A DNA stretch of 64,000 nucleotides from Flavobacterium sp. GTDB taxonomy: Bacteria; Bacteroidota; Bacteroidia; Flavobacteriales; Flavobacteriaceae. The DNA is taken from positions 204,280 to 268,279 of the forward strand of contig NZ_SEBR01000002.1 of assembly GCF_004295795.1 (NCBI RefSeq), read 5' to 3'. Positions 40,941 through 43,561 of the stretch are shown piece by piece (the stretch's first letter is position 1; every line of letters begins with the position of its first letter). The position numbers were made by a program, and so were the translations under genes. The notes beneath the pieces are model-generated. The model searched no databases, was not told where the DNA came from, and saw only the letters and a list, made by a program, of their open reading frames with translations.

Positions 40941-42317
40941 ATGGCACAAAAAACAGGCATACCCAAAGGCACGCGCGACTTTTCTCCGGAAGAAGTGGCC
41001 AAGCGTCAATACATCATGTCGATCATGCGCTCGAATTTCGAGAAATTCGGTTATCAACCCATCGAGACGCCGTCTTTCGAGAATTCCGAGACTTTGATGG
41101 GCAAATATGGGGAAGAAGGCGATCGCTTGATTTTCAAGATATTGAATTCGGGAGATTATTTGGCCAAAGCCGATGAAAGTCATTTGTCGAACAAAGACAG
41201 TTTGCGACTCACCTCTTCAATCTCCGAAAAAGCCCTGCGTTACGACCTGACCGTGCCGTTCGCGAGATATGTCGTGCAACACCAAAACGATTTGCAGTTT
41301 CCGTTCAAGCGTTACCAAATCCAACCGGTTTGGCGTGCCGATCGTCCGCAGAAAGGCCGTTTCAGGGAGTTTTTCCAGTGCGATGCCGATGTCGTCGGAT
41401 CGGATTCGCTTTGGCAGGAAGTCGAACTCGTGCAATTGTACGATTCGGTTTTTGCCGAGTTAAGATTGGACGCAGCGACGATAAAAATCAACAACAGGAA
41501 AGTTTTGTCGGGCATCGCCGAGACGATAGGAGCGAAGGACAAACTCATCGATTTCACGGTGGCTTTGGACAAACTCGACAAAATCGGTGCCGACGGTGTG
41601 AAGACCGAAATGCTCGAGAAAGGAATATCGGCCGAAGCCATTGAAAAAGTACAACCGCTGTTTTCGTTTATGGGAAGCGTCGATGAAAAACTCGAAAAAT
41701 TGTCAGTTTTGCTGTCTGAATCCGAAGAAGGAAAAAAAGGGATCGCCGAATTGCGTTTCATCTGTGACAACGTGAAAGCTTTGGGATTAAAAGGTTCTGT
41801 TTTGGATCTGGACGTGACTTTGGCGCGCGGCCTCAATTATTACACCGGTGCGATTTTCGAGGTCTCGGCTGCAAACGTTGCAATGGGATCGATTGGCGGC
41901 GGCGGACGCTACGACGATCTGACGGGAATCTTCGGGCTCAAGAATATGAGTGGCGTAGGGATTTCTTTCGGACTGGACAGGATTTATCTCGTTCTCGAAG
42001 AACTGGGACTTTTCCCGGAAACGGTCACATCGGCTCCGACCGCACTTTTCCTCAACCTCGGAGAAGGTGAAGCTTTGTTCGCGATGCAGGCCGTGACTGA
42101 ACTCCGCAACGCCAACATTCGCGTGGAAATGTATCCGGACAAGGCCAAATTCGACAAGCAGTTCAAGTTTGCCGAAAAACGCAATATTCCGTTCGTCGTG
42201 ACAGTTGGCGAACAGGAATTGATCGATGGGAATTATTCGGTCAAGAATTTGATCAGTGGCCAAAAATCTACGGTTTCCTTACGCGAATTGAAGGAACTTT
42301 TTTTGGAGATTTTTTGA
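40941..42317 (+). CDS. hisS: Histidine--tRNA ligase
   Basis: [42 protein letters not shown]. Confidence 0.98.
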
Positions 42318-42394
42318 GGGATGTTGTGAGCGATTTTCGAACAGCTACTAGTCAAATCGAGTTATCAGTATAAAATAAAAATCTTGCAGATTAC

Positions 42395-42424
42395 TTGGTA
42401 TATTACAAATAGTTATTATATTTG
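42395..42424 (+). promoter_or_regulatory. Promoter of the small-RNA/NYN unit
   Basis: TTG (42395-42397), 19-nt spacer, TATATTTG (42417-42424). Confidence 0.75.
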
Positions 42425-42429
42425 CACTC

Positions 42430-42488
42430 ATAACGCCACCCCGTAGTCTCTGTACTGCGGACCTGCTCCTTCTGGGAGCATTTTTTTT
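42430..42488 (+). ncRNA. Candidate ~55-nt small RNA or attenuator (two hairpins, second a terminator)
   Basis: CCGTAGT-CTCTGT-ACTGCGG (42441-42460) and TGCTCC-TTCTG-GGAGCA-T8 (42464-42488), between the promoter and the NYN start; 5' end approximate. Confidence 0.55.
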
Positions 42489-42498
42489 ATGCTAGATT

Positions 42499-43173
42499 AT
42501 GGAACAACCAATACCTCCTAAAAAAGTTGTCTTCTATTTCGATGGCTTTAATTTCTATCACGGATTCAAAGCCTACACGTTAATCAACGATGAATGGAAA
42601 AACTATTATTGGTTAGACTTTGGGAAATTTTGCTCGCAATTTGTTAATGAAGATGACAATCAGAAATTACATAAGGTTAGATATTTTACAGCGCCTCCGA
42701 AGAACGTACAAAAACGAAGTAAGCAAAGCGCTTTGTTCTCAGCAAATACTATTTTAAATGGAGATTTGTTTGAGGTCATCAATGGACACTACTCGGATAA
42801 ATTTATCGACTGTCATGCAACTTGCAAAGAGCGATTTATGGTGCCAGAAGAAAAGTGTACAGATGTAAACTTAGCCTTGGCAATGATAAATGATTGCATC
42901 GAAGGAAATGTAGATGTTATAACTTTGATTACTGCGGACAGCGACCAGGTTTCAACAATCAAATATATCAAGGAGAAATTTCCTAAAATAAAAATAAAAG
43001 TATATTTTCCACCAGAAAGGAAATCGAATGAAATACGTCATCTCATGAAAACGGTTGTATTTTTGGAAAACCACGAAGACAAGTTCAAAAATGCAAAAAT
43101 GTCAGGTACGGTAACTGGTGACATAAAAGGAAAACAAAAAAACTACACTCGCCCTGAAGAGTGGAAAAAGTAG
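42499..43173 (+). CDS. NYN/LabA-DUF88 (PIN-like) ribonuclease
   Basis: FYFDGFNFY, EEKCTDV, TADSD acidic motifs; visibly more AT-rich than its neighbours. Confidence 0.9.
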   Translation: MEQPIPPKKVVFYFDGFNFYHGFKAYTLINDEWKNYYWLDFGKFCSQFVNEDDNQKLHKVRYFTAPPKNVQKRSKQSALFSANTILNGDLFEVINGHYSDKFIDCHATCKERFMVPEEKCTDVNLALAMINDCIEGNVDVITLITADSDQVSTIKYIKEKFPKIKIKVYFPPERKSNEIRHLMKTVVFLENHEDKFKNAKMSGTVTGDIKGKQKNYTRPEEWKK

Positions 43174-43199
43174 TCCTGTTTTGAATAAAAAATGAAACT

Positions 43200-43311
43200 G
43201 CCGCTAATCGCCATCGCTGGTTCACGGTTAATAGAACCAACTTTTTACATAACTTCGGTTTTGTTCGGCAGATAGATTTCTCTCAGGAAGGCCTCGACGG
43301 CGTTTAGCGGC
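43200..43311. repeat. 112-bp element with 17-bp imperfect terminal inverted repeats
   Basis: GCCGCTAATCGCCATCG (43200-43216) pairs 15/17 with CGACGGCGTTTAGCGGC (43295-43311); internal stem 43218-43239. Confidence 0.7.
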
Positions 43312-43317
43312 CTCACG

Positions 43318-43477
43318 TTATGAGTTACGAGTTATGAGAATTAAGCTACTAGTTTACTCCTGCCGACTCAATACTCTATATTCGTCATTCCGCACTAGAT
43401 ACTCAATGCTCAAAACTCACCACTCGATACTCATTACTCAACACTCATTACTCAACACTCATCACTCTTTACTCATA
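43318..43477. repeat. Head-to-head heptamer arrays
   Basis: TTATGAG TTACGAG TTATGAG (43318-43338) and eleven ACTCNNN units (43401-43477), reverse-complement related. Confidence 0.85.
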
Positions 43478-43487
43478 ACCAGAAATA

Positions 43488-43515
43488 GAAAAGCCTCTCG
43501 AATCAAGAGGCTTTT
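43488..43515. terminator. Bidirectional terminator
   Basis: GAAAAGCCTCT-CGAATCA-AGAGGCTTTTC. Confidence 0.8.
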
Positions 43516-43561
43516 CTGTTTTGGGGAAAAAGGGTAAAATAGTGGGTGTTCTTTTTGTTCG

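Follow-up and report, generated by a model that had tools for sequence, protein, structure and literature searches.

Does the short two-hairpin RNA encoded in front of an NYN-domain RNase gene act as a partner of this nuclease, and may it restrain the nuclease as an RNA antitoxin? To our knowledge, RNA antitoxins have been described for few kinds of toxin, namely the ToxN-like fold, AbiF and AvcD. The question was raised by a preliminary description of a Flavobacterium locus in which a promoter, a small RNA and a terminator precede the RNase gene. The whole stretch of DNA that was analysed (64,000 nucleotides) is called the window, and all positions refer to it. Positions 42395-43173 form a self-contained accessory cassette of about 780 bp, which consists of the promoter, the RNA and the NYN ORF. 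Its features are as follows:

42395..42424, + strand: Bacteroidetes-type promoter (-33/-7 form), read in the sequence
42430..42440, + strand: probable transcription start (42430-42432) and single-stranded 5' tail AUAACGCCACC, placed by the start of a metatranscriptome contig
42441..42460, + strand: hairpin 1, 7-bp stem CCGUAGU/ACUGCGG with loop CUCUGU, from the MFE fold
42464..42488, + strand: hairpin 2 (UGCUCCU/GGGAGCA) and U8, predicted intrinsic terminator and 3' end of the ~59-nt RNA, from the fold and a terminator scan
42499..43173, + strand: NYN-domain RNase gene, 224 aa, PADLOC HEC-09 family, from Pfam and the PADLOC HMM

The promoter is composed of TTG (42395-42397), a spacer of 19 nt and TATATTTG (42417-42424), and our reading of the sequence agreed with the preliminary description on this point. 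At most related loci a TAnnTTTG box was located 9-13 nt 5' of the AACGCC tail. This AACGCC (42432-42437 in the window) is conserved, and in the alignment A3, A11, C14, C15 and C17 were invariant and G13 was nearly invariant. In hairpin 1, CCGTAGT (42441-42447) pairs with ACTGCGG (42454-42460), one of the pairs being G-U. In hairpin 2, TGCTCCT (42464-42470) pairs with GGGAGCA (42474-42480) and is followed by T8 (42481-42488), and the gap from the T-run to the ATG (42499) is 10 nt. The structure that RNAfold predicted for the leader consists of just these two hairpins (-19.4 kcal/mol, z = -2.5, with 2/200 shuffles equally good), which matches the earlier claim of two stems and a T8 terminator 10 nt ahead of the ATG. 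The terminator scan also picked hairpin 2. The predicted RNA of ~59 nt comprises the AACGCC tail, hairpin 1, and terminator hairpin 2 with U8. The window, like most loci, has a single RNA unit, and its own genome has one copy.

Transcription of the cassette was followed in metatranscriptome contigs from the same sample. One contig started at 42430-42432, 6-8 nt past the -7 box, and read through the terminator to 42842 at a depth of 21.6. The RNA contig of hisS, behind which the cassette lies, ended at 42318 with a depth of 2.1, and no RNA contigs were found over 42319-42429. Together the assembled RNA contigs span 42432-43168, including the NYN ORF; being assembled contigs, they cannot tell whether the 59-nt RNA accumulates. 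Our results showed that the cassette has its own transcription start and terminator read-through. For a related variant in another carrier, assembled RNA contigs (with no depth profile) also ran through the terminator. An antiterminator, formed by the C-rich 5' tail and the 3' arm of hairpin 2, was considered and rejected, as covariation between the tail and hairpin 2 was not seen across subtypes. Nor was any other pairing found that covaries with hairpin 2. The terminator thus appears to be constitutive, like those of type III loci.

The boundaries of the cassette were examined by comparison with related loci. blastn against seven of them aligned the window from 42395-42410 to 43101-43172 and nothing beyond, and nucleotide homology to related cassettes starts exactly at 42395, the promoter TTG. 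The flanking genes were different at every related locus examined, and one related locus adjoins a helicase/methylase system. The RNA was not found in 310 other Bacteroidota genomes and the NYN protein was not found in the 60 nearest relatives, so the cassette is accessory, in line with the earlier suggestion of an insertion after hisS. In the 40 same-genus genomes sampled, hisS identity was only ~66-76%; this divergence leaves the exact insertion ends undefined, and homology to other cassettes was used instead. NYN homologues with a structured, terminated leader were also detected on enterobacterial ColE1-type plasmids of 3.5-4.2 kb, and an E. coli homologue is borne by a pHFQ5-type plasmid. 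Culturable carriers include Flavobacterium cheongpyeongense IMCC34759, Flavobacterium sp. N1719 and Chitinophaga sp. Cy-1792. The comparisons showed the cassette to be mobile, and we describe window 42395-43173 as a module with two parts, an RNA and a protein.

The protein belongs to a large family of predicted nucleases. Its match to Pfam PF01936 (NYN) was borderline (E 5.9e-5, 24.0 bits at a cut-off of 24.2), and 27 of 30 aligned relatives matched Pfam NYN, with a best E of 1.7e-9. No Pfam family other than NYN matched the window protein. The PADLOC HEC-09 profile HMM matched residues 8-223 on profile positions 2-203 of 203 (E 5.4e-44, 148 bits). The AlphaFold2 model (pLDDT 93.7) had as its top PDB match 2qip, a LabA-like NYN protein (E 2e-7). 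Four acidic residues, D15, D122, D147 and D149, were invariant across relatives, as were P219 and W222 of the C-terminal RPxxW. The GC content of the cassette is 0.32-0.37 versus 0.45-0.55 in the flanks. GC, Pfam, PADLOC and the invariant aspartates all confirmed that this is an AT-rich NYN gene with intact acidic motifs. Clustering at 50% identity divides the HEC-09-type NYN family into 2,689 or more clusters.

HEC-09 was reported as a PADLOC candidate defence gene embedded in Hma systems (Payne et al., bioRxiv 10.1101/2024.01.29.577857). It is a single NYN-domain gene of the same protein family as the window gene. The published description is of the protein only and does not mention a non-coding RNA (bioRxiv 10.1101/2024.01.29.577857); HEC-09 as published is thus without a partner RNA, whereas the window cassette carries one upstream. 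When HEC-09 of Pseudomonas amygdali was cloned with ~150 bp of upstream sequence, E. coli was not protected from any tested phage, and the construct was absent among those flagged as toxic (bioRxiv 10.1101/2024.01.29.577857). The P. amygdali protein is a distant representative relative to the window protein.

If the hairpins belong to the nuclease gene, they should recur with it. A covariance model found the RNA directly upstream of the NYN gene at 44 fetched loci, and in 565 kb all matches at E<0.002 (44/44) were located just upstream of an NYN gene on the same strand. Among 42 aligned copies, 97.6% of cells pair, double changes occur at 11/14 pairs and the compensatory cells number 104, while slid controls reached only 37-52% pairing. 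In hairpin 1, compensatory changes were observed at all 8 modelled pairs over the 42 sequences. In hairpin 2, the stem varied in a compensatory manner among GCUCC/GGAGC, GCCUCC/GGAGGC, GCUGCC/GGCAGC and GCCGCC/GGCGGC. An alignment-free scan of up to 170 nt upstream detected two adjacent perfect hairpins at 65/78 homologue loci, compared with 14/224 control ORFs. A T-rich tail followed the hairpins at 56/78 homologue loci and at none of the controls. At most homologue loci the hairpins are located within 10-45 nt of the start codon.

MAFFT with RNAalifold over all variants recovered just part of hairpin 2, which was due to misaligned stems. The covariance model from the close subgroup and the alignment-free scan were adopted instead. 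The MAFFT alignment of the Ignavibacteria/Bacteroidales subgroup was not fitted by a single structure line, and pairs were formally counted in the 42 aligned copies. The RNA was detected upstream of NYN homologues in Flavobacteriales, Chitinophagales, Bacteroidales and Ignavibacteria, and also in Leptospira, Thermus, Deltaproteobacteria and other groups. Conserved covarying hairpins and a terminator, for which the preliminary description had proposed a test, are therefore present upstream of homologues across many phyla. Termination is not universal, however: in a GC-rich subgroup (Thermus, Deltaproteobacteria, Planctomycetes) the U-run behind hairpin 2 is missing, and 70-110 nt separate the motif from the gene. 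Judged by this covariation, the two-hairpin RNA is not a chance structure.

The loops behave differently from the stems. In the close subgroup, loop positions UCUC-G-A of hairpin 1 were invariant, and RNA subtypes track protein clades down to ~30% protein identity. Within subgroups the loops are fixed while the stems covary, as one would expect if a protein recognises the RNA. The preliminary description had noted UCUG in both loops and had proposed it as a possible cut or recognition site. UCUG is indeed in both loops in the window, but the proposed site is not kept among relatives (loop 1 CUCNGU, loop 2 NNNUG). Distant subgroups have quite different loops. A search of the leader with the covariance models of Rfam 15 gave nothing at E up to 10, and six other variants, with sources in enterobacterial plasmids, Leptospira, Thermus, Ignavibacteria and Bacteroidales, matched no relevant Rfam 15 family. 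Matches of RNA variants to Phe_leader and Thr_leader were dismissed as terminator hairpins only. The two-hairpin RNA is a conserved and apparently undescribed partner RNA of the NYN gene, and on the comparative evidence it is a specific partner that co-evolves with the nuclease.

The RNA was also found in tandem and on its own. Tandem arrays were observed at two Chitinophaga loci, one with 4 units and the other with 2. The U-run is missing from the first unit of the 2-unit array, and in the 4-unit array it is present in every second unit only. Viral genomes encoding no NYN homologue bear the RNA alone, including records that are 91% and 100% complete. One phage copy differs from Flavobacterium leaders by just one base, in a loop, and a second copy comes with a TAnnTTTG promoter of its own and a terminator but no ORF. 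Two phage copies lie near endolysin genes, one immediately behind the stop codon, and these two could be no more than captured terminators. The group-B RNA pattern had no matches in viral contigs. When viral loci fetched by the RNA patterns were searched with tblastn, some NYN-carrying contigs were found. The Chitinophaga arrays and the stand-alone phage copies add support to an RNA that acts in trans and neutralises the nuclease.

A mechanism can be proposed as follows. One promoter would start transcription at ~42430, and most transcripts would end at hairpin 2 and U8 to give the ~59-nt RNA, with terminator read-through supplying the mRNA of the NYN RNase ORF. The short RNA, in excess, would bind the NYN RNase and hold it inactive, like ToxI or RCd22, and the hairpins within the read-through mRNA may also dampen the NYN gene in cis. 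If the module were no longer transcribed, for example because a phage infects the cell or the element is lost, the nuclease would be released and could cleave RNA. The RNA excess, the RNA-protein binding, the toxicity of the nuclease and the role in defence or addiction are all inferred. By analogy with type III antitoxins and AbiF/RCd22, we regard the chances that excess RNA binds and restrains the NYN nuclease as evenly balanced.

RNases commonly regulate themselves through their own leaders, for example RNase E, RNase III and Regnase-1. The NYN RNase might likewise bind or cut the hairpins of its own mRNA, acting in cis only, with the short RNA as a by-product. The hairpins do sit in the read-through mRNA, close to the start codon at most loci (10-45 nt), and co-evolution of RNA and protein would be equally expected. 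However, a strong constitutive terminator is present at 56/78 loci and is needless for pure feedback in cis, array units lacking the U-run still keep both hairpins, and phages without an NYN homologue carry stand-alone RNA genes, one with promoter and terminator. We consider cis-only autoregulation unlikely. Another idea is that the RNA is a positive cofactor needed by the nuclease, as scaffold, guide or sensor, rather than an inhibitor. Co-inheritance and co-evolution would suit any obligate RNA-protein complex, and the inactivity of HEC-09 in a foreign host could reflect a missing trigger or target. The stand-alone phage copies argue against a cofactor, as a phage would have no benefit from switching on a nuclease of its host. 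The RNA has little single-stranded sequence, the alignment shows no variable stretch that resembles a guide, and complementarity to the gene's own mRNA is not significant (8 nt; 213/500 shuffles). We regard a positive cofactor as quite improbable. Type I-like antisense pairing with the NYN mRNA was rejected on this same 8-nt longest complementary word, which 213/500 shuffles reach.

The element could also be generic expression hardware, in which a 5' hairpin stabilises the message, a leaky terminator keeps expression low and phages reuse it as a terminator, and nothing in it interacts specifically with the nuclease. Hairpin 2 does look like a classical intrinsic terminator, and the two phage copies near endolysin genes, one right behind a stop codon, would fit. 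However, the element was found only with this one gene family, with no other copies in 311 genomes and 565 kb of flanking DNA. Generic hardware would also not account for hairpin-1 loop bases that stay invariant within subgroups while the stems covary, for RNA subtypes that follow protein clades to ~30% identity, or for array units that retain both hairpins after losing the U-run, and we therefore hold it to be very unlikely. The simplest idea, that hairpin 2 is the hisS terminator and that hairpin 1 and the promoter are due to chance, is almost certainly wrong. The hairpins do follow the hisS stop codon at a distance of 124-171 nt and share the strand of hisS. However, the promoter-RNA-NYN unit recurs in dozens of unrelated gene contexts, homology to other loci begins at the promoter and not at hisS, and the hisS RNA contig ends at 42318 with a separate contig from 42430.

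How does a restraining RNA of this kind compare with known RNA antitoxins? Like type III systems (ToxIN, CptIN, TenpIN), the cassette has a promoter, a non-coding RNA, a Rho-independent terminator and an endoribonuclease gene expressed via read-through, and the single promoter and the terminator between RNA and toxin gene are both seen in the window. Both kinds of module are mobile, being borne by plasmids and defence islands, and both have tandem RNA units, in the NYN case only at two Chitinophaga loci. The toxin fold in type III systems is ToxN/AbiQ, whereas the window protein is NYN/PIN-like. The type III antitoxin is a tandem direct-repeat array, whereas the window has a single unit. The earlier suggestion of a type III-like system was right in the layout of promoter, RNA, terminator and RNase, and the classical features fail on the lack of a ToxN-fold toxin and of a repeat array. 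As the window RNA extends from the transcription start to the terminator, it would not have to be cut out of a repeat array. It has two simple hairpins and no evident pseudoknot, unlike type III RNAs. Phage RNA copies without a nuclease recall the pseudo-ToxI mimicry of type III systems by phages, reportedly described by Blower and colleagues in PLoS Genet in 2012.

[quoted passage not shown] As in the NYN module, a structured RNA accompanies a single protein gene, here that of an Abi-type toxin. AbiF/RCd22 is the best model, by analogy, for how the NYN module may work. The AbiF protein is Abi_2/HEPN-like and unrelated to NYN, and the RCd22/abiF RNA is unrelated to the window RNA; the abiF family is excluded for the leader by the Rfam search at E up to 10. 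AvcID pairs the sRNA AvcI with the deoxycytidylate deaminase AvcD, is activated by phage infection and has a type III-style RNA antitoxin with a non-ToxN-fold toxin (PMC10511110). AvcD is a deaminase and not an RNase, and the RNA and gene layout are unrelated to those of the NYN module.

More broadly, HEC-09-type NYN proteins with their ~60-nt RNAs might form a large type III-like TA/Abi class in many phyla with a new toxin fold, and the phage RNA copies might be decoys that disarm the nuclease. This proposal is tentative, and we think it rather more probably wrong than right. If the NYN nuclease is restrained by this RNA, the RNA-antitoxin principle would reach a PIN-like RNase family of thousands of members in many phyla, with a spread that includes small enterobacterial plasmids and gut prophages. 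Such restraint would explain why HEC-09, cloned together with its upstream region, was inert in a foreign host. The RNA would be a new structured family missing from Rfam, and phages would for a second time be seen to copy the RNA of an antitoxin in order to evade defence. Should the RNA prove not to be an antitoxin, its co-evolution with a nuclease over this range of bacteria would still make it a ready system for studying RNA recognition by NYN domains.

The pair of RNA and NYN gene was also observed in prophages, including gut prophages.

The preliminary description had reported a promoter, two stems, a U8 tract and a closely spaced ATG in front of an NYN gene, and all of these were present in the sequence.

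Features of the NYN cassette and its surroundings (window coordinates)
40941-42317, hisS, the gene on one side of the NYN ORF
42395-42397, TTG of the promoter, with 19 nt between it and TATATTTG at 42417-42424 (Bacteroidetes -33/-7 form)
42441-42460, hairpin 1, CCGUAGU/ACUGCGG with one G-U pair, loop CUCUGU
42464-42480, hairpin 2, UGCUCCU/GGGAGCA, then U8 at 42481-42488
42499, ATG of the NYN-domain ORF (224 aa)
43200-43216 / 43295-43311, 17-nt inverted repeat, 88% complementary
43317-43345 / 43451-43479, 29-nt inverted repeat
43366-43463, four ~21-nt ACTCA-rich direct repeats
43487-43517, strong bidirectional terminator
convergent, 2,204-aa gene on the other side of the NYN ORF

The RNAfold structure contained both hairpins and nothing else (-19.4 kcal/mol, z = -2.5), and hairpin 2 was called as a terminator by a terminator scan. 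The GC content of the NYN segment was 0.32-0.37 versus 0.45-0.55 in the flanks. Nucleotide homology to seven related loci spans 42395-42410 to 43101-43172 and nothing beyond, indicating that the shared unit is exactly the promoter, the RNA and the ORF; the flanking genes were different at every locus. An upstream ORF of 10 codons (ATGCTAGATTATGGAACAACCAATACCTCCTAA, 42489-42521) follows the U-tract directly and, in a different reading frame, runs across the NYN start codon. It is probably meaningless; related loci have no ATG at that place. Behind the NYN stop codon there is a repeat-rich 390-nt spacer (43174-43560). Nucleotide comparison showed that its repeats and terminator are no part common to related NYN cassettes, so they belong to the host site or another element.

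A metatranscriptome of the same phyllosphere sample as the genome had four contigs on the NYN stretch.

RNA contigs on the NYN stretch (window coordinates; assembled contigs carry no information on the amount of the 59-nt RNA)
42107-42318, end of hisS, depth 2.1
42432-42842, depth 21.6, two extra unaligned 5' bases placing the true start at 42430-42432
42830-43168, depth 8.65
fourth contig, beginning of the neighbouring convergent gene

No RNA contig of this sample covered 42319-42429. This gap and the contig start at 42430-42432 indicated that the cassette has its own start, 6-8 nt past the -7 box, and the contig crossing the terminator indicated that part of the transcripts read through. A contig with leader and ORF of a related variant was found in a wastewater metatranscriptome.

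Close relatives of the NYN protein number in the hundreds. We fetched 80 genomic loci, whose encoded relatives range from 83% down to 31% identity. The layout 5' of the homologues was recurrent: a TAnnTTTG box, an AACGCC-type tail, hairpin 1, hairpin 2 followed by a U-run and, 3-45 nt further on, the start codon. Compensatory stem variants were observed in hairpin 1 (CCGUAGU/ACUGCGG, CUAUAAU/AUUAUAG, CUUUACC/GGUAAAG) and in hairpin 2 (GCUCC/GGAGC, GCCUCC/GGAGGC, GCUGCC/GGCAGC, GCCGCC/GGCGGC). A covariance model was built from 21 close sequences, and 42 matches were then aligned to it. In this 42-sequence alignment 97.6% of the cells were paired, 11 of the 14 pairs had double changes and 104 cells were compensatory; when the partners were shifted by 1-3 columns as a control, only 37-52% paired. 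Because this alignment was fitted to the model, an alignment-free test was added, which required two adjacent perfect hairpins, each of at least 6 bp and with a gap of at most 6 nt, within 170 nt upstream. Of the 78 homologues, 65 had such hairpins, and in 56 of these 65 a T-rich tail was also present; in control ORFs of the same loci the corresponding numbers were 14 of 224 and 0. Most of the 13 homologues missed had the motif with a mismatch, as judged by model matches or inspection, and only one, a Chloroflexota locus, had no trace of it. The test for conserved, covarying hairpins 5' of NYN homologues that the preliminary description had proposed was thus positive. A covarying antiterminator for hairpin 2 was looked for, and none was found.

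More distant protein clades come with two-hairpin RNA versions of their own.

Versions of the RNA in distant clades
Ignavibacteria, UUUACCCCCGCAGGAUGAGAAAGUCCUGUG..AGCCCCUCAAUUGCAGAGGGGCU
Bacteroidales, AUCCCCCGUAGGUGGAAAAUACUACGG..GCCACCU..AGGUGGCUUUUUU
Thermus, Deltaproteobacteria and Planctomycetes, GACGCCC..GGGGCGUC GGGCCAGAGAUACUAUCUCUGGC
Leptospira plasmid, yet another two-hairpin version

Within a subgroup the loop bases were invariant and the stems variable. The UCUG common to both loops in the window, which had been proposed as a cut or recognition site, was not conserved among relatives.

The association with the NYN gene was specific. The model was run over both strands of the 565 kb of fetched DNA, and each of its 44 matches at E<0.002 lay immediately upstream of an NYN gene and on the strand of that gene. 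The RNA has one copy in the window's own 4.4-Mb genome; both RNA and NYN protein were absent from 60 of 60 relatives' genomes, and the RNA from 250 further genomes of the phylum. The suggested search of Rfam 15 was run, and no family was matched by any RNA variant.

The NYN protein matched the PADLOC profile of HEC-09, a candidate defence gene family, over its full length (E 5.4e-44), and by sequence belongs to HEC-09 and to the NYN family. According to Payne et al. (bioRxiv 10.1101/2024.01.29.577857), HEC-09 consists of one NYN-domain gene, lies embedded in Hma systems, is similar to MARF1 and has three conserved aspartates. The Pseudomonas amygdali representative, cloned together with the ~150 bp upstream of it, did not protect against any of the coliphages used, and that paper mentions neither an RNA nor the three invariant cysteines noted here (bioRxiv 10.1101/2024.01.29.577857). 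The AlphaFold2 model of the NYN protein was confident (pLDDT 93.7), and its sole significant PDB match was 2qip, a LabA-like NYN protein. The NYN protein alignment (A1) had invariant D15, D122, D147, D149, C105, C109, C133, P219 and W222. The three cysteines are placed in and beside a beta-hairpin inserted into the NYN fold and may form a metal site or disulphide.

Two Chitinophaga loci have tandem two-hairpin units 5' of the NYN gene: four in strain Cy-1792 (locus L086, 5740-5950; A-B-A-B, ~106-nt period), where the U-run is confined to the B units, and two in strain Hz27 (L011, 2832-2949), where it is confined to the second. Both hairpins are retained in the units that lack the U-run, so hairpin 2 is more than a terminator. 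The unit number in these arrays appears to be under selection.

A viral collection was also scanned with RNA patterns, and the matches were sieved with the covariance model. Stand-alone RNAs were found in a 109-kb phage (91% complete; IMG/VR, L107, 7653-7714; 63.7 bits), a 33.5-kb phage (100% complete; IMG/VR, L147, 1357-1423; 79.4 bits) and a third viral contig, and no NYN homologue was present anywhere in the three whole records. The 33.5-kb phage RNA differs from the Flavobacterium leaders in one loop base, begins directly after an endolysin stop codon and is followed by two DNA methyltransferase genes. In the 109-kb phage the RNA has a 93-aa ORF on one side and, on the other, a gene for a virion structural protein and then an endolysin gene, ~1.4 kb from the RNA. 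Among the viral matches to the gut Bacteroidales subtype, 20 had the full two-hairpin-plus-T-run form, followed by an NYN gene in 8 and not in 12; positive controls in the same search detected NYN. Eight of these 12 contigs are one phage type, in which the RNA comes with a TACCTTTG promoter of its own and a terminator and without an ORF. Together, the arrays and stand-alone phage copies point to a putative trans-acting, nuclease-neutralising RNA.

The simplest account is an RNA-protein pair in which overproduced RNA holds the nuclease inactive, and we give it about an even chance. The RNA would be overproduced because most transcripts would terminate, nuclease mRNA would arise by read-through only, the excess RNA would keep the NYN nuclease inactive, and phages carrying the RNA alone would disarm it. 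Reading the pair as a toxin-antitoxin system is more tentative. The inert P. amygdali homologue, cloned with its upstream region in E. coli, fits a neutralised toxin without being evidence for one.

An autoregulatory leader acting only in cis would account for RNA-protein co-evolution, but it is unlikely, since it leaves the conserved constitutive terminator, the arrays and the stand-alone phage genes unexplained. Phage carriage is also hard to reconcile with an activating cofactor or guide, and complementarity between the RNA and its own mRNA is not significant, making this role quite improbable. Generic cassette hardware is highly improbable, being contradicted by the exclusive association with the NYN gene family and the invariant loops. 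The 44 model matches upstream of NYN genes, the separate RNA contigs and the homology limited to the cassette exclude, to near certainty, a hisS terminator or chance.

The RNA-nuclease module resembles a type III toxin-antitoxin locus in layout, and AbiF/RCd22 (an RNA linked to the abiF gene) in that a conserved structured RNA is associated with a single putative toxin gene; the module lies outside the abiF family. The sequence observation is confirmed and the type III-like interpretation is in part supported: layout, conserved RNA, arrays and phage copies favour it, but the module does not belong to ToxIN, CptIN or TenpIN because its putative toxin has a different fold and its RNA is a single unit. 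In the limited collection of full-text literature searched, no link of NYN proteins to type III systems or a partner RNA was found.

The family comprises 2,689 representatives of 50%-identity clusters (E <= 1e-10). In one lineage (L083-L085, a Bacteroidetes MAG and metagenome contigs) the cassette adjoins a helicase/methylase system, with a large N6-methylase/Eco57I-like gene and a SWI2/SNF2-ResIII helicase gene, and transposases. HEC-09 was originally defined in an Hma-embedded context, which these surroundings resemble. Gut-type cassettes occur in viral contigs, one of which is classed as a provirus, and further relatives are on Leptospira, Thermus and Thiothrix plasmids. In E. coli, Salmonella and Klebsiella, ColE1-type plasmids of 3.5-4.2 kb encode relatives of ~27% identity. 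The leader of these relatives is ~160 nt long and strongly structured (z = -5.9), and it ends in a hairpin-plus-terminator pair ~15 nt before the ATG.

NYN homologues (27% identity) on ColE1-type plasmids
L091, 1162-1481, E. coli plasmid pHFQ5 (3,555 bp)
L092, Klebsiella pneumoniae plasmid (4,232 bp)

Apart from Rop, RNAI and the NYN homologue with its leader, these two plasmids contain little more than an HTH gene transcribed divergently. The region separating the HTH gene from the NYN gene holds two palindromes that are probably operators: CAGTTACTACCTAACTACTCTTAATATAAGAGTAGTTAGGTAGTAAC, which is long and near-perfect, and GGATGACATAAATGTCATCC.
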